From a virus (lineage: Duplodnaviria; Heunggongvirae; Uroviricota; Caudoviricetes): a stretch of 64,000 nucleotides of DNA. Positions within the stretch are counted from its first letter, which is position 1, and every line of letters begins with the position of its first letter. The stretch is from the IMG/VR virus record IMGVR_UViG_3300045988_134250. One strand, 5' to 3'. Position numbers and translations under genes: made by a program. Below, piece by piece: positions 3,431-54,301 of the stretch. The notes beneath the pieces are model-generated. The model did not search any database. It was not told the origin of the DNA and worked only from the letters and a program-made list of their open reading frames with translations.

Positions 3431-3475
3431 CCATTTGTGTTAGAAAATACATATTAATTATCTAACACAAATGGG
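3431..3475. promoter_or_regulatory. 45-bp palindrome containing two inverted copies of the TTTTCTAACA motif (candidate double operator) abutting the rdgC-like RBS
   Basis: ccatttgtgttagaaaatac atat taattatctaacacaaatgg; arms are reverse complements with one mismatch. Confidence 0.5.
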
Positions 3476-13011: not shown

Positions 13012-13953
13012 TTAACTAACAATCCAGTCCATAGCAATAACATCCTCTGGAGCTAAATCAATAGCATGGATTTTCCCGTCACGGATGGTGCGCCAGTGCT
13101 TTCGTGATCCACCTTCGGGCCACACCCATATACCTTCAGGCCAGGAAGAACGACGACACACTGTTGCGTATCCAGTCCTGATCTTCTCTCTGGCGGTATG
13201 TAGTGACAGATTATCCTTTGGGCTTTCAGGCACAGGATGGTGGATTGCCTGAAACATCCCCATCTTTGGATGATACCAGCGTTTATTGCGTGGTTCTGCC
13301 TCCGACATCACCTGCTTAAAGGCTTTCCGGAAGGGGGCAAGGGCCACAATGGAGCGTCGCGCAAGCAAGCCATCGGGGGTCAAAAACTCATGTGTATCGG
13401 TGGGAATCCGGTAAGCGTTGACAAGGTTACGGCATTTGGCTTCAGTCAGGCCACATTTCGCCGCCAGCTGGCGGTAGCCAATGTAGCCTTCCGGCATATT
13501 GCCTTTCTTGATTTGCTCAACGGTTTCAGCGACCCTGGACACTTGTGCCGATACCTCGGCTACCTGGGCATTTACGGCGTTGATCCGGCGTTCATGCTCA
13601 AGATGCATTTGCGCCATTTCAGCCAGGATTTCGGCTTTTGATTTTAACTGTACCCGGGCATTCTCCAGTTCGCGCCAGCGGTCCACCAGCCGGGCGGTAA
13701 ATTCGGGAGAGAGCTGCGCGACGACGACAATACTATCGCGCTTGCCTTGTTCGCCTTCGAAGAAATAGGCTTTTGTGTATTTATTAGGGCTAAGTGATTG
13801 ATTATTCTCAACTGTAGCCAATGGCGTATGTTGGATAACTCCTTTAGCAACAAGTCTTTCGATGCTGCGTTTAACATCAGAGTGACGACTTCCCACCAGT
13901 TCCGCGATCTCAATACTGGTCATTGTCGCTTTTTGAGAGATGGACAGATTCAT
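13012..13953 (-). CDS. ant: Antirepressor-like protein with Rha-type N-terminal domain
   Basis: 313 aa; N-terminal MTSIEIAELVGSRHSDVKRSIERL (Rha/phage regulatory HTH); start overlaps stop of icd-like ORF by 1 nt. Confidence 0.6.
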   Translation of the reverse strand: MNLSISQKATMTSIEIAELVGSRHSDVKRSIERLVAKGVIQHTPLATVENNQSLSPNKYTKAYFFEGEQGKRDSIVVVAQLSPEFTARLVDRWRELENARVQLKSKAEILAEMAQMHLEHERRINAVNAQVAEVSAQVSRVAETVEQIKKGNMPEGYIGYRQLAAKCGLTEAKCRNLVNAYRIPTDTHEFLTPDGLLARRSIVALAPFRKAFKQVMSEAEPRNKRWYHPKMGMFQAIHHPVPESPKDNLSLHTAREKIRTGYATVCRRSSWPEGIWVWPEGGSRKHWRTIRDGKIHAIDLAPEDVIAMDWIVS

Positions 13954-14168
13954 CAGTGCACCTCCACGCAGTTCATCGGCAGATTCCAGTAATTGAGGAT
14001 CTCCATCGCATCAAGAGTGAAGCGAGCAGCAAAAATGCAGGGTTCTTCGGGAAGGTATGAGCGCGCCTCTGCTTCGGTAGCAGCCATGACGCAGATATAC
14101 AGGTGTTTTTGGCAGGAATAGAAACGCCAGATAAATTCAGAATGAGTTGGGGTAGGGATAGTAGCCAT
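13953..14168 (-). CDS. icd: Icd-like small protein
   Basis: 71 aa; RBS aaggagg; conserved EFIWRF.S.QK...AATE.EARS shared with second copy at 53664-53888; coupled to ant. Confidence 0.5.
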   Translation of the reverse strand: MATIPTPTHSEFIWRFYSCQKHLYICVMAATEAEARSYLPEEPCIFAARFTLDAMEILNYWNLPMNCVEVH

Positions 14169-14480
14169 ATTGGCAGCCTCCTTTGACTAAGTTAAGGAGC
14201 TACCGCGTGAGGTTCCAATCTCAATGGCGGTAGCACTGACTGGGTTGGAACTACCGGCGTCAAAGGGAACCGGCCTGCCTTTCGGCAGCCCAGCCAGCAC
14301 TACCATTGATCTCTGAGCTAAACGCTAAGTATGGCTGTGCGATGGCATGACACAAAAAAAGACGCGTTCGGCGTCTGTGTCGCCTTTGACATTATCCGGG
14401 GTTCCAATCCCGGCACCCGTTTTTCTAAGGTGCCGTAGAAATATACCCCACGATAATGCCAGGGCGCAACAGTCAGTATT
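14169..14480 (-). ncRNA. Structured leader / candidate c4-like regulatory RNA region upstream of icd-ant
   Basis: Minus-strand RNA has element CCUUUGAC (plus 14259-14267) complementary to the icd SD region GUCAAAGGAGG (plus 14177-14187), several stem-loops, and an internal terminator. Confidence 0.3.
14354..14375 (-). terminator. Rho-independent terminator within the immI-like leader
   Basis: gacgc-gttcg-gcgtc hairpin (14361-14375) followed on the minus strand by a 7-U run (A-run 14354-14360 on plus). Confidence 0.5.
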
Positions 14481-33672: not shown

Positions 33673-34710
33673 ATGAGTAAGAAGTCGATCGAGAAAGAGT
33701 ACAAACGGTTCCTGCAAACCGCTGAACGGTGGAAAGAGCTGGTGGTCGCAAACTCTGTTTTCCATGATACCAGTTATGCTGGCGAGGAATTCCGCCATGT
33801 TGCATTAACGCATGACCAAAACATATTAGAAGAAGCTGAAAAATGTCTTGCTGAATGGAAAGCCTTCGTTGACATGTGCCGCGATGCCGACGGCAAAGCG
33901 TCGAACATTGTTGAGTCTGTATATTCTCCGATCCCATTCATCATTGAGGACACCAATCAAAGCACGCATGTTGTTGTGCAAAGCGCTACAACAACACGTA
34001 CATTTACACGTGAACAATTGCTCAAAAAATACGACAAAATCATAAAGAAAAGCCTGAAAAATAGGGTTTTTTCTCAAATCGTAGGTGCTCTTGAAGAAGA
34101 ACAGCGCTTCTTTGAAGCTGAGCCTGAAGGCGAGATCTACCGGGCGCGTAAAGAGGCATATACAGATGTTGTGCTGACAACAAACATCGAAGGCAGCAAT
34201 GCCCTTTCTCGCTTTAGAGTTGGCGCACATGGCGCATTGGTTTTCGCAAGACTACCGAAGACAACGATCCCCGTTGTCAATAATGTTGGTGAGCGCCGGA
34301 GCATTACAATTTATTCTGGCGTCGAATCGGTACCTTGCAGCCTTCTCGGCGATTTTAACTTATATCGTGTTCGTGACCTGGAAAAACACCAGCCAAGCTA
34401 CGTTGCGAAGTCGTACATCTTAAGGAACATCGATATTCGCAATGAAAGCCTTAAGCAGAAATCCGCTAAGATGCTGGAGGATGCCGATCCGGCTATTCGC
34501 CATATCATTGAGCGTAAGATACGTACATCACGTGAAGCAATGGCAAGGCTGGATAAAATGGATCTGGAATTGTTAGACGTAATGATGGCCTCTGGAGACG
34601 ACCTGACCGGCATAAAACTGAATGAAGCTCGTAAAAAATACGGCAAAGCAATCGAAGAACGTTACGGATACACATTCCCCCAAACGCAGTACGCCGCGAA
34701 GCTCTGGTAA
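33673..34710 (+). CDS. Candidate C1-type immunity repressor (positional inference only)
   Basis: 345-aa ORF between rox/dre and pacB, the position of c1 in P1-family phages; operator-like motif at its 5' end; no motif-level confirmation. Confidence 0.3.
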   Translation: MSKKSIEKEYKRFLQTAERWKELVVANSVFHDTSYAGEEFRHVALTHDQNILEEAEKCLAEWKAFVDMCRDADGKASNIVESVYSPIPFIIEDTNQSTHVVVQSATTTRTFTREQLLKKYDKIIKKSLKNRVFSQIVGALEEEQRFFEAEPEGEIYRARKEAYTDVVLTTNIEGSNALSRFRVGAHGALVFARLPKTTIPVVNNVGERRSITIYSGVESVPCSLLGDFNLYRVRDLEKHQPSYVAKSYILRNIDIRNESLKQKSAKMLEDADPAIRHIIERKIRTSREAMARLDKMDLELLDVMMASGDDLTGIKLNEARKKYGKAIEERYGYTFPQTQYAAKLW

Positions 34711-39527: not shown

Positions 39528-39603
39528 TGGTGGCCCCTACCGGACTTGAACCGGTGACCGTGCGATTATGAGTCGCCCGCTCTAACCACTGAGCTAAAGG
39601 GCC
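39528..39603 (-). tRNA. tRNA-Ile2 (anticodon CAU, ileX-like)
   Basis: GGCCCTTTAGCTCAGTGGTTAGAGCGGGCGACTCATAATCGCACGGTCACCGGTTCAAGTCCGGTAGGGGCCACCA; near-identical to E. coli ileX as recalled; encoded CCA. Confidence 0.8.
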
Positions 39604-40032
39604 AGATTACTGTTAATTACGCTTACGCTTTTTGCCAGAACCGCGTAAGGCTTTTGCCGCTTGCTCTACCCCGTATGCAACCACCAGCAGAAACAATAAT
39701 GTCCACTCCGGGTTTTTATCGGCAAACGCCCAAAAATCCATCACTTGCAGCCACCTTTTAAGACAAAACGCCATTGCTGTTAGGTTGCGGTGCCGGGCGC
39801 CTCCCGGTGACGTTAACCAGTTAACAATTAACGCCGGATCACTTATGGATTCTCGTTACGCCAGTAAAAAGACCACCTTTACTGTTTTAACTGTTCCGCG
39901 TGCGCTTAGCCGCATTCACCGCAATGGTAAGAGCATTTGGCTGACTGGGCGGCGATGACGCCTGTACGCATTTGGTGATCCGGTTCTGCTTCCGGCATTC
40001 GCTTAATTAGCCAAATACCCTTAATGTTGCAC

Positions 40033-40119
40033 TGGCGGAGAGTAATGGAATCGAACCATCATCGCTTGCGCAATGGGACGGTTTTCAAGACCGCTTGAGC
40101 ACCATGCTCCCTACTCTCC
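40033..40119 (-). tRNA. tRNA-Ser (anticodon UGA), type II
   Basis: Acceptor GGAGAGT/ACTCTCC, anticodon arm CGGTCTTGAAAACCG identical to E. coli serT, long variable arm, T-loop TTCGATT, CCA end. Confidence 0.7.
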
Positions 40120-40491
40120 CGTTATTGTGGCGACCGGTGCTGATCTCCGGCTTGCGGTTATTTCAGACTCTCACGGGCGTTTAATTGCCCCGCCGAACAG
40201 CTCTTTTCCGCAATAGCTGCAATGTCTTTCGCGCATCAGCCTGCGCATTCACCACAATGTTGAGAACACTGGTTGTCACGCTGCAACGCAACATTTATTC
40301 GTAGATTGGGATATGACCCCGTTACGCCAGTGTTCTCAACGTTGTAGTGCCGGTTACGGTTCCGGCCAGACCTCTTCCTCAACGGGGTGTTCTCCATACG
40401 GACTACCGTTTATTGGTCGTTCCTGCGGTTTATGTTGTGAAGCCAGATGCTTATCTTCTGGTTGCTTCAAAGAGCTGCACTTCATCACAAC

Positions 40492-40565
40492 GGTAAGAGC
40501 ATTTATGGCTCGCATCGCGGGAAAAAGCCCACGGTAGAGAGTCGAACTCTACAAATGCTCTTACC
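40492..40565. repeat. 13-bp perfect inverted repeat enclosing a tRNA 3'-half-like element
   Basis: ggtaagagcattt (40492-40504) / aaatgctcttacc (40553-40565); on the minus strand the loop reads GTAGAG-TTCGACT-CTCTAC-CGTGGGC-TTTTT (T-arm plus acceptor-like 7-mer plus U-run); related copy at 39926-39938. Confidence 0.5.
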
Positions 40566-40573
40566 TGTTGTGT

Positions 40574-40649
40574 TGGTGCCGGTTAACGGGATCGAACCGC
40601 TGACCATTCGCTTACAAAGCGACTGCTCTACCAACTGAGCTAAACCGGC
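40574..40649 (-). tRNA. tRNA-Thr (anticodon UGU)
   Basis: GCCGGTTTAGCTCAGTTGGTAGAGCAGTCGCTTTGTAAGCGAATGGTCAGCGGTTCGATCCCGTTAACCGGCACCA. Confidence 0.8.
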
Positions 40650-40653
40650 AATT

Positions 40654-40740
40654 TGGTGGGGAGTGATGGAGTCGAACCACCCGAGTCGCAATGACAGTAG
40701 ATTTACAGTCTACCCCGCTACCCCTACGGACTAACTCCCC
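40654..40740 (-). tRNA. tRNA-Tyr (anticodon GUA), type II
   Basis: Acceptor GGGGAGT/ACTCCCC; anticodon arm GTAGACTGTAAATCTAC (E. coli tyrT: CAGACTGTAAATCTG); long variable arm; TTCGACT T-loop; CCA. Confidence 0.75.
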
Positions 40741-40745
40741 TAAAT

Positions 40746-40820
40746 TGGCGATGGTGGGTGGATTCGAACCACCGACCAGTTGGTTAACAGCCAACTGCTC
40801 TACCGCTGAGCTACACCATC
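40746..40820 (-). tRNA. tRNA-Asn (anticodon GUU)
   Basis: GATGGTGTAGCTCAGCGGTAGAGCAGTTGGCTGTTAACCAACTGGTCGGTGGTTCGAATCCACCCACCATCGCCA. Confidence 0.8.
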
Positions 40821-52241: not shown

Positions 52242-52727
52242 ATGGCAAACATTGAACCTCGCTGGCTAATTGAAGCCCGTAAGCACATTGGCTTGACTGA
52301 AATAAAAGGCGCTAAACACAACCCTGAAATCGTTCAGTTCTGGCGCGACATCAAGCGCGGCGGAATTAAAGACGATGAAACGCCGTGGTGCGCAGCATTT
52401 GTCGGTGCAATGCTGGAACGTGTAGGCATTCGCTCAACAAGATTTGAGTCGGCAAAATCCTATCTGGATTGGGGCGAGAAATTAGATACACCGGCATACG
52501 GATGTATCGTTGTATTTACCCGCGTAGGCGGTGGGCACGTAGGCTTCGTTGTCGGACGCCGCGCCAATGGCGATCTGCTTGTCCTGGGTGGGAACCAGGG
52601 GGATGCGGTTAATATTCGCGCATTCCCAACATCAAGAGTGTCTGGCTATCGCTGGCCTGCTGGCGAACCACGCAATACCGCCCTGTTACCAGTCGGAGAC
52701 GCAGCAACCTCAACTAATGAGGCATGA
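52242..52727 (+). CDS. CHAP/NlpC-P60-like putative peptidoglycan hydrolase
   Basis: 161 aa; conserved Cys (ETPWCAAFV) and His (GGGHVGFVVG) in papain-like arrangement; divergent from darB. Confidence 0.45.
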   Translation: MANIEPRWLIEARKHIGLTEIKGAKHNPEIVQFWRDIKRGGIKDDETPWCAAFVGAMLERVGIRSTRFESAKSYLDWGEKLDTPAYGCIVVFTRVGGGHVGFVVGRRANGDLLVLGGNQGDAVNIRAFPTSRVSGYRWPAGEPRNTALLPVGDAATSTNEA

Positions 52728-52759
52728 AAAAAGCCCCGGCCAGGCCGGGGCATCACGCT

Positions 52760-52957
52760 TCAAGTCACGATCCAATCATTACCGACTATATCAGCCGTCG
52801 ATAAATCAACTTCCCGGATCTGGAGTCCATTAATACAAAACCATCCGGTAGTAGAGTAATTATCAGGCCAGGCCCATACACCAACACTCCATGCTTTACG
52901 GCGGCACACTTCAGCCTGTCCTTCCCTGATTTTTTTTACCGCCTGCATGATGTCCAT
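52760..52957 (-). CDS. Ant C-terminal-domain homolog as separate coupled ORF
   Basis: 65 aa from ATG 52957 (TGATG overlap with upstream stop); CRRKAWSVGVWAWPDN...IVGNDWIVT parallels Ant-1 C-terminus CRRSSWPEGIWVWPEG...VIAMDWIVS. Confidence 0.5.
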   Translation of the reverse strand: MDIMQAVKKIREGQAEVCRRKAWSVGVWAWPDNYSTTGWFCINGLQIREVDLSTADIVGNDWIVT

Positions 52958-53664
52958 CACTCACCTCCCCAACCGATCACCTGGAATTGCCCCATTTTGG
53001 GGTGATACCAGCGTTTTCCTCGGTGTTCAGCCTCCGACATCATCCGGTTAAAAGCATTCATGAAGGGAGATAAGGCCACGATGGAACGACGCGACAATAC
53101 CCCCTCTGGAGTCAAAAACTCATGTGTATCGGTGGGAATCCGGTAAGCGTTGACAAGGTTTCGGCATTTGGCTTCAGTCAGGCCGCATTTCGCCGCCAAC
53201 TGGCGGTAGCCAATGTAGCCTTCCGGAATATTGCCTTTCTTTATTTGCTCGACGGTTTCAGCGACCTGGCTAACCTTTGACTCAACAGCATGAATCAGCT
53301 TTTGCTGCTGAACTGCATTCGCAGCCATTGCAGCGATCATCTCTATTTCGGTCAACGGCTGGCGTACTTGTTCTTCCAGTTCGCGCCAGCGGTCCACCAG
53401 CCGGGCGGTGAATTCGGGAGAGAGCTGCGCGACGACAATGATGCTGTCTCGTTTGCCTTGCTCGCCTTCGAAGACGTAAGCCTCAACGCCACGACGCAAT
53501 CCTAAGTTATTGATTTTTTCGAAAACAGCCATTGGCGGTTTTCGGATAATGCTTCGAGCAACCATACGCTCAATACTACGTTTAACGTCAGAGTGTTGGC
53601 TTCCCACCAGCTCCGCAATCTCAATGCTGGTCATTGATAGTTTTTCGAGAATGCAGATACCCAT
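52957..53664 (-). CDS. ant: Antirepressor-like protein (Rha-type N-terminal domain), copy 2, lacking fused C-terminal domain
   Basis: 235 aa; MTSIEIAELVGSQHSDVKRSIERM...; C-terminal region near-identical to Ant-1 residues ~190-260. Confidence 0.6.
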   Translation of the reverse strand: MGICILEKLSMTSIEIAELVGSQHSDVKRSIERMVARSIIRKPPMAVFEKINNLGLRRGVEAYVFEGEQGKRDSIIVVAQLSPEFTARLVDRWRELEEQVRQPLTEIEMIAAMAANAVQQQKLIHAVESKVSQVAETVEQIKKGNIPEGYIGYRQLAAKCGLTEAKCRNLVNAYRIPTDTHEFLTPEGVLSRRSIVALSPFMNAFNRMMSEAEHRGKRWYHPKMGQFQVIGWGGE

Positions 53665-53888
53665 CAGTGAGCCTCCGCAATGCCGGGATTGGTAATATTG
53701 CGATACCAGGGATTAGTGTTTGGTTGTGGGGAAGTAGAGAAACGACCAGTAAGAACACCATGCTGATCAGGGATCAGAGAACGGGCTTCTTTTTCGGTTG
53801 CGGCAATTGCGAAGTGATCGCAGCGTTTTTGCAGGGAGTGGAAACGCCAGATGAATTCTGGACGTGAGCAAGGATTGGCATTAACCAT
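53664..53888 (-). CDS. icd: Icd-like small protein, copy 2
   Basis: 74 aa; EFIWRFHSLQK...AATEKEARS; coupled to ant. Confidence 0.5.
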   Translation of the reverse strand: MVNANPCSRPEFIWRFHSLQKRCDHFAIAATEKEARSLIPDQHGVLTGRFSTSPQPNTNPWYRNITNPGIAEAH

Positions 53889-54230
53889 AGTTACGGCCTC
53901 ACTAACAGGTTTAACAACCTGCCACCCGCTGTCAAACAGGTGGCAGGACGTGACAGGGTTGACAGACTGGCGTTAGTGAAACCAGCAGGCCGAAGCCTCC
54001 CCATCACGCCCCACCATAATTCGGGCGTAACGCGGTTTACGGACACAAAAATACCGCAATATCGGAAATCTGCGGTTGTCCGCACTAACATTCAGGCTGT
54101 CAAACCCGGTCGCAGAATTTGCTACGACGGCATGAATATAAGCCTGAAAACATGGAAGATCAACTAAAAATTTCAGCAATGGATGACTTCAGTCGATGAT
54201 GCAGATCATACATTCCGTTTTAGAAACAGC
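53889..54230 (-). ncRNA. Structured leader / candidate c4-like regulatory RNA region, copy 2
   Basis: Minus-strand RNA has UCACUAAC (plus 53972-53979) complementary to SD region GUUAGUGAGG (plus 53897-53906) plus 9-bp stem cctgccacc/ggtggcagg (53918-53947). Confidence 0.3.
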
Positions 54231-54237
54231 AAATTAA

Positions 54238-54247
54238 TTTTCTAACA
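54238..54247 (+). promoter_or_regulatory. TTTTCTAACA motif copy
   Basis: aattaattttctaacataaat; degenerate copy ttttagaaac at 54217-54226. Confidence 0.45.
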
Positions 54248-54301
54248 TAAATAATCGGCCGAGCATTTTCCGATCATTGGGATGTTTTGTAGACACACAG
54301 G

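Follow-up and report, generated by a model that had tools for sequence, protein, structure and literature searches.

A P1-type immI operon with a separately encoded, predicted Tad2-fold protein on a D6-like phage-plasmid

The stretch analysed here (IMG/VR record IMGVR_UViG_3300045988_134250, 64,000 nucleotides (nt), Caudoviricetes; hereafter the window) carries two operons of the type known from the immI (secondary immunity) region of phage P1. In such a switch a small antisense RNA, c4, keeps a cell-division inhibitor and a putative antirepressor from being translated; the mechanism, worked out in P1 and P7, has been textbook knowledge since about 1990. The two operons are called module 1, in which the last gene encodes a fused protein of 313 amino acids (aa), and module 2, in which the corresponding parts are encoded by a 235-aa gene and a 65-aa open reading frame (ORF65). 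Taken whole, the best explanation, to which we give a probability of about 80%, is that module 2 is the P1 immI operon as it occurs in the D6 lineage, carried by a D6-like phage-plasmid, with a 65-aa protein of predicted Tad2 fold that is translated separately. What the analysis establishes is the layout of the operon, its homology, the conserved split, covariation of the paired bases and, at the level of prediction, the fold. The switch itself adds little, its mechanism being textbook and the double arrangement being already annotated in D6. What is new is modest: the Tad2-fold assignment for the last gene and for the fused domain of module 1, a c4 allele identical to that of P1 on a D6 backbone, and a combinatorial code of c4 specificities.

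Module 2 as a D6-lineage immI operon

Both module regions are 100% identical to the Escherichia coli plasmid pB2C_96 (NZ_CP035876.1), and phage D6 (MF356679) matches them across their full length with 94% and 90% DNA identity. Judged by these matches the window is a D6-like, P1-type phage-plasmid; a darB-like ORF of 2278 aa is present, and pro and repL homologues adjoin module 2. The features of module 2, in the order of transcription, are as follows.

52733-54248, minus: module 2 (promoter, a1/b1, c4 RNA, a2/b2, icd, 235-aa gene, 65-aa ORF, terminator)
54233-54248, minus: operator-like 16-mer ATGTTAGAAAATTAAT, putative C1 operator of D6 type, located where P1 has Op51, its function suggested by sequence
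54135-54163, minus: sigma-70-like promoter TTGATC-17-TATATT, aligning with P1 promoter P1c4 (P51b)
54089-54141: match to Rfam c4-a1b1 (RF03163), 55.2 bits, E 3.3e-11, upstream of C4
54097-54103 and 54083-54090, minus: a1 TTGACAG and b1 TGTTAGTG, upstream copies of the c4 target sites
53936-54021: match to Rfam C4 (RF01695), 68.8 bits against a threshold of 45, E 2.8e-11
53939-54015, minus: c4 antisense RNA, 77 nt, 100% identical to annotated mature P1 c4
53971-53979 and 53959-53965: c4 loops b' UCACUAACG and a' CUGUCAA
53939-53947 with 53918-53926: 9-bp stem of CCUGCCACC and GGUGGCAGG, its 5' arm being the 3' end of the c4 RNA
53929-53935, minus: a2 TTGACAG, in the loop of that stem (53918-53947)
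53899-53907, minus: b2 UGUUAGUGA, overlapping the icd Shine-Dalgarno sequence GAGG
53664-53888, minus: icd-like gene, 74 aa; NCBIfam phage_ICD_like 38.4 bits (cut-off 25), phrog_1426 E 2.6e-38, 56% identical to P1 Icd
52957-53664, minus: Rha/Roi-family gene, 235 aa, its start overlapping the icd stop (TGATG)
52760-52957, minus: 65-aa ORF, ATG at 52957 and stop at 52760; the ATG overlaps the stop of the Rha-type gene (TGATG, 52955-52959, one shared A)
52725-52751, minus: strong intrinsic terminator (8 G-C pairs, then T6) that ends the operon

From inside icd to upstream of a1, module 2 is 93% identical to P1 immI, and the 77-nt P1 c4 lies unchanged within a 181-nt exact match between the two. 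When the sequences are aligned, the promoter, a1/b1, the c4 loops, a2, b2 over the icd Shine-Dalgarno and the icd start all coincide with experimentally annotated P1 features. Matches to Rfam C4, c4-a1b1 and isrK (the last in module 1) exceed their gathering thresholds and occur in the expected order, with E values of about 1e-10 to 1e-13, and the coupled arrangement of P1 immI is found in the phage_ICD_like score above cut-off together with the TGATG overlaps. All of the immI-like icd-ant features described in a first-pass annotation of this DNA were recovered in the ORF listing, the Rfam searches and the leader pairing, and so were the complementary pair and the 9-bp stem that it had described in the module 2 leader. 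It had presented module 2 as the 'second' module; with a c4 RNA 100% identical to that of P1, this is in fact the canonical P1-type one. The minimum free energy fold of the whole leader is strongly structured (z -5.7), and we do not use it to support any alternative conformation.

If module 2 behaves as P1 immI does, a constitutive sigma-70 promoter with a C1-type operator before it would give a leader containing a1/b1, the c4 RNA and a2/b2. The c4 RNA would be processed out of this leader and its two loops would pair with a2 and b2, so that the icd ribosome-binding site would be occluded. Because TGATG stop/start overlaps link icd, the Rha/Roi-type gene and the 65-aa gene, all three products would be made only once c4 control had been overcome. 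The upstream a1/b1 copies would act as a built-in decoy for c4, and the 65-aa protein may be a small, ligand-binding, oligomerising accessory protein of sponge type, co-expressed with the putative antirepressor. RNase P processing of c4 and translational repression in vivo are assumed here from P1 only; taken together, c4 processing, repression and coupling would follow by homology with P1 and with IsrK of Gifsy-1. In the isrK-orf45-anrP operon of Gifsy-1, the downstream gene needs translation of the upstream ORF via an overlapping stop/start (PMC4825925).

The operator-like motif ATGTTAGAAAAyTAAT occurs 13 times in the window at no more than three mismatches, compared with about one copy expected by chance (starts at 3437, 3453, 11573, 14969, 15622, 19017, 19033, 32234, 33644, 38077, 43288, 54233 and 55437). 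Copies lie upstream of a weak C1 homologue (33691-34467), repL, module 2 and ref, and also ahead of the small ORFs preceding module 1, at a distance of about 160 bp. Judging from sequence and position, these copies are probably D6-type C1 operators. At the other end of module 2, a CHAP/TIGR02594 peptidoglycan-hydrolase gene (52242-52727, plus strand) is convergent with the operon, and the G+C-rich terminator hairpin (52733-52751) is common to both.

A conserved split downstream of the Rha/Roi-type gene

The first-pass annotation correctly described the reading frame after icd as ending after residue 235, with a 65-aa ORF restarted through TGATG at 52955-52959 and the two parts fused into 313 aa in module 1, and it raised a frameshift error at 52957 as a possible cause. 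That error is excluded by the distribution of the junction. The sequence GGAGG(T/C)GAGTGATGG, in which T/C is a single synonymous Shine-Dalgarno variant, is the same in D6, in five further plasmids and in 15 out of 16 IMG/VR contigs. D6 annotates the same three genes at the same lengths (orf19, orf18 and orf17), and pB2C_96 and the five further plasmids have identical gene lengths and junction in hosts that include E. coli, S. Typhimurium and E. marmotae. The plasmids bearing the split were isolated in Vietnam, USA, Russia, Mexico, Switzerland and UK. At least 80% of module 2 is covered by 109 PLSDB records, the 65-codon ORF with this junction is present at 15 of the 16 IMG/VR loci of module-2 type, and ORF65 is intact in all 22 copies examined.

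The alternative is that the split arose from faulty sequencing or assembly, or that a fused ant gene was recently inactivated by a frameshift (a pseudogene). It can point to the fused form in module 1, to the different frameshift that breaks the module-1 gene in four IMG/VR contigs and to the A8 run inside ORF65 (52930-52937). Against it stand not only the identical junction and ORF lengths in D6, five independent plasmids and 15/16 IMG/VR loci, at 91-100% identity, but also the nature of the junction itself. Relative to module 1 it consists of a 17-nt indel and an unrelated linker rather than a single-base slip, and it provides a strong, well-placed Shine-Dalgarno sequence (GGAGGTGA, 5 nt upstream of the 65-aa ORF) as well as the TGATG overlap. 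PHROGs, moreover, holds a separate family of 65 positions that ORF65 matches end to end, and the C-terminal end of phrog_63 is reached by the fused protein only. We regard the error or pseudogene explanation as effectively refuted, with a probability close to nil. The split is, on this sequence evidence, native and conserved, and the 65-aa ORF is no fragment of a damaged Ant gene; the split should not be 'repaired' in annotation.

A fusion of the 235-aa and 65-aa products by programmed frameshifting or read-through was considered and rejected: such a product is unavailable because the ORF65 frame is closed by a stop two codons upstream of its ATG. The A8 homopolymer (minus strand) falls in the codons V-K-K-I of ORF65 and is a potential slippage site; two database variants (P0003 and P0126) are frameshifted near there.

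The 235-aa gene had been labelled Ant. It is not P1 Ant: Pfam and PHROGs place it in the Rha/Roi family, and homology to P1 Ant1/2 or KilA was ruled out by tblastn searches with P1 Ant1 and KilA against the window, which gave no match at E <= 1e-3. The N-terminal Phage_pRha domain (PF09669) scores 30.6 bits in the 235-aa protein and 32.7 bits in module 1, a small margin over the cut-off of 29.9, and is about 79% DNA-identical to roi of HK629 and Stx phages. The middle domain of the fused module-1 protein (residues about 105-235) matches phrog_6610, a family of unknown function. The 235-aa protein also matches phrog_63, 'anti-repressor Ant' (E 1.2e-46). An antirepressor function is putative and is taken from position and annotation only (phrog_63 and the note in the D6 GenBank record), because no match to P1 Ant1 or KilA and no NCBIfam name were found.

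Residues about 20-63 of the 235-aa protein (window 53475-53605), in the N-terminal Rha domain, are hypervariable even between plasmids in which the rest of the gene is almost the same; from the sequences compared, this suggests exchange of cassettes, or diversifying selection acting on a surface used for recognition.

Module 1 and the specificities of the two c4 RNAs

Module 1 has the same general plan as module 2, with a different leader.

14355-14433, minus: isrK-like element of the leader (Rfam isrK, RF01394, 61.3 bits), upstream of C4
14401-14407 and 14383-14390, minus: a1 TTGGAAC and b1 GTCAAAGG, within the isrK-like leader
14360-14376, minus: the leader's own terminator-like hairpin and T-run
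14223-14310, minus: c4 RNA (Rfam C4, 77.1 bits, threshold 45)
14259-14266 and 14245-14251: c4 loops b' CCUUUGAC and a' GUUCCAA
14212-14218 and 14180-14187, minus: targets a2 and b2
13953-14168, minus: icd
13012-13953, minus: fused gene, 313 aa, Rha plus Tad2-like domain; phrog_63 matched to its end, phrog_7385 at residues 252-312

The 235-aa and 65-aa products of module 2 align with the N-terminal and C-terminal parts of the 313-aa protein. The two units had been called largely identical at protein level. They are indeed alike, but the degree was overstated, since identity amounts to 68% for the Rha-type proteins, 39% for Icd and 40% for the C-terminal domain compared with the 65-aa ORF. DNA identity between the modules is 50-70%, but reaches about 90-97% per 30-nt window in two blocks within the Rha gene. 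For the fused 313-aa protein, structure prediction gave a model of unusable quality (mean predicted local distance difference test score, pLDDT, 58.9).

Three side observations concern module 1. In related plasmids, PGAP annotates a 39-aa 'ash family protein' that lies exactly over the module 1 C4 RNA (window 14187-14306, minus strand); very likely this is an RNA gene mis-called as a protein. Natural mosaics of the two Rha-type paralogues exist, in which the module-2 N-terminus is joined to the fused module-1 C-terminus (P0110). Finally, a recurrent and clearly disruptive frameshift splits the module-1 gene into overlapping ORFs of 212 and 120 aa in four IMG/VR contigs (L050 and L052-L054; e.g. 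positions 2256-3198 of L053).

It had been proposed that the two leaders carry different antisense/target pairs and hence respond to different c4 RNAs. Covariation among related loci agrees with this, and the leaders are not identical. In nine sequences of the P1-type locus variation is almost confined to the a and b sites, which change in concert. Between the module-2-type c4 loops and a2/b2, 99.1% of cells are paired and 8 out of 16 pairs show compensatory changes; in controls in which the partners were slid by 1-3 columns, 30-51% of cells are paired. Between the same loops and a1/b1, 100% of cells are paired (8 out of 15 pairs compensatory), and over both comparisons the slid controls range from 25 to 51%. 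At the module-1-type locus 100% of cells are paired, with compensatory changes in 4 out of 15 pairs, and each of the four possible a-by-b combinations is represented.

The scan was widened to modules from phages, plasmids and IMG/VR, using a regular expression in which the variable positions were left free. All 49 modules retrieved show three-way agreement, a1 being identical to a2 and complementary to a', and b1 identical to b2 and complementary to b'. These modules fall into six specificity classes at the P1-type locus, built from two a and four b alleles, and four classes at the module-1-type locus (two by two). Module 2 of the window is of the P1 class (a GA, b GTTAGT) and module 1 has a GA/b TC. 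In D6, the b allele of module 2 is ACTTAC and module 1 is AG/CA, so that neither the a nor the b allele of this module is that of the window. Predicted loop-target duplexes reach -8.8 to -17.6 kcal/mol for cognate combinations, compared with -1.6 to -7.0 kcal/mol for cross combinations. Because of the covariation, the three-way agreement and the duplex energies, the view that the two modules would answer to different c4 RNAs, through loop/target sets predicted not to cross-pair, is well supported. The c4 loops and the target copies read as a small combinatorial code. The P1 c4 allele of this plasmid predicts immI cross-immunity with P1 and not with D6.

The occurrence of two antirepressor units in one phage had been thought unusual. 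It is not: both modules are present in every D6-like element examined, and a module-1-type c4-icd unit is present in 441 PLSDB plasmids, many of them P1-like. In its GenBank record, D6 has both icd genes and both putative antirepressors annotated, and a second c4/icd region in a D6-like plasmid has already been mentioned in print (PMC6799933). Having two modules per genome is thus the norm in D6-like elements and frequent among P1-like plasmids. When the phage collection was searched with module 1, P1 itself was not matched. Phages RCS47 and JL22 and many P1-like plasmids have a module-1-type c4-icd unit between pacB and c1, followed by a P1-Ant-like (KilAC) gene, in addition to a canonical immI (L005, i.e. 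RCS47 100905-106319; L018 and L019). Elsewhere in the window, a cluster of four tRNA genes lies at 39531-40820 (minus strand).

The predicted Tad2 fold and relation to known systems

The structure predicted for ORF65 consists of an N-terminal helix followed by an antiparallel sheet, as in Tad2 proteins, and the prediction is very confident despite a shallow alignment. On this model, ORF65 is an autonomous Tad2-fold (DUF2829-like) protein. An exhaustive HMMER search with ORF65 among 1.8 billion representatives returned just 8 proteins, one of which, P0127, is a genuine Tad2-like protein by Pfam (37.4 bits) and provides a transitive sequence bridge to Tad2. In a profile search of the PDB, Tad2 proteins ranked first, at sub-threshold values (E 0.07-0.18). 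ORF65 found nothing in NCBIfam and only close relatives in a word-indexed protein search; the module-1 C-terminal domain had no match to the Pfam Tad2-like model. Other phage-plasmid contigs, about 90 kb long, carry distant ORF65 homologues as stand-alone genes with no Rha gene next to them, and by this sequence context the domain is autonomous.

Several results weigh against the reading proposed for module 2. The 9-bp stem of the leader is perfect in this allele only, and P1 and D6 have a central mismatch. The Rha/Roi-type protein, a putative antirepressor, is unrelated to P1 Ant1/2, and no NCBIfam model names it. ORF65 reaches 15.1 bits with the Pfam Tad2-like model (PF11195), below the cut-off of 25, and keeps only 3 of the 6 principal contact residues of SPO1 Tad2: at W25, N26, W73, S76, T78 and D79 (contacts to gcADPR reported in bioRxiv 10.1101/2023.05.01.538930) it has W, S, V, S, A and D, so that N26, W73 and T78 are replaced. 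Its ratio of non-synonymous to synonymous polymorphism (pN/pS) is about 0.84 among close relatives, and recent purifying selection on ORF65 is accordingly weak. At the six positions the module-1 domain reads W, P, I, A, E and D and thus keeps fewer of them than ORF65. Tad2 relatives bind quite different signals and their pockets vary widely across the family (PMC12393519); the partial pocket therefore neither supports nor excludes sponge activity.

ORF65 may be read as an independent sponge, as a non-covalent subunit of the Rha-type protein or as a decaying remnant, the remnant being least likely. As an oligomerisation or regulatory subunit it would be the two-chain equivalent of the fused module-1 protein, loosely like the P1 Ant1/Ant2 complex, and not a sponge in its own right. 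The covalent fusion of the same domain to the paralogous Rha protein speaks for such a role, as do the natural recombinants that join a module-2 N-terminus to the fused C-terminus, the obligate homotetramers formed by Tad2 proteins and the partial retention of gcADPR-contact residues. However, the distant homologues stand alone and not beside Rha genes, and the divergent pockets of the Tad2 family still bind signals. We consider the subunit reading less likely than not. That ORF65 is a functionless remnant, kept only by its position between the Rha gene and the shared terminator, would fit its pN/pS and the fact that 10 out of 11 variable codons in the first seven sequences are non-synonymous. 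Yet the ORF is intact in 22 out of 22 relatives, its core residues recur in the module-1 domain (40% identical) and in remote homologues, and its fold is predicted with great confidence from few sequences; besides, anti-defence genes also typically show high pN/pS. A remnant is distinctly improbable on this evidence.

Returning to the separately translated Tad2-fold protein, a more specific proposal would be that the domain binds a host immune signalling nucleotide and acts as a sponge of anti-Thoeris, anti-Pycsar or anti-CBASS type under c4 (immI) control, the fused form physically tying an antirepressor-like regulator to the sensing or sequestering of a defence signal. This is speculative, with the odds well against it. 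If true, D6-like phage-plasmids would link host immune signalling to the lysis-lysogeny switch. A literature search for fusions of Tad2 to Rha or to antirepressors found nothing relevant. The fold in the last operon gene and in the fused paralogue offers a testable anti-defence lead in phage-plasmids that are widespread in E. coli and Salmonella.

Compared with immI of P1 and P7, module 2 has a 100% identical c4 RNA, the same a1, b1, a2 and b2, the same promoter position, icd, the stop/start coupling and an upstream site resembling a repressor operator. It differs from P1 in that the gene after icd is of Rha/Roi type instead of Ant1/2 and is followed by an additional ORF of predicted Tad2 fold; kilA is absent, repL lies upstream of module 2 and downstream in P1, and the operator motif is ATGTTAGAAAAyTAAT and not the P1 C1 operator. 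Phage D6 (MF356679; orf17-orf18-orf19 and orf82-orf83) and D6-like plasmids such as pYU39_89 have the same gene order and lengths in both modules, whereas the c4 specificity alleles of D6 differ from those of the window at both. Module 1 resembles isrK-orf45-anrP of the Salmonella prophage Gifsy-1 in its leader, which matches Rfam isrK and has its own terminator, and in its order of parts: a predicted small RNA, then an ORF that is coupled by overlapping stop/start codons to an antirepressor-like gene. The short IsrK RNA of Gifsy-1 was shown to activate translation in trans. Among sponges of the Tad2/DUF2829 group (SPO1 gp34.65, ModTad2 and AcrIIA7/HgmTad2), ORF65 would be distinguished by its length (65 aa compared with 73-104), its score below the Pfam threshold, its replacements of N26, W73 and T78 and its predicted c4 antisense control, and the module 1 domain by its fusion to a Rha DNA-binding protein. 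With Rha of P22 and Roi of HK022 and HK97, finally, both window proteins share the N-terminal Phage_pRha domain, but their genes are located in immI-type operons and module 1 adds a C-terminal domain.

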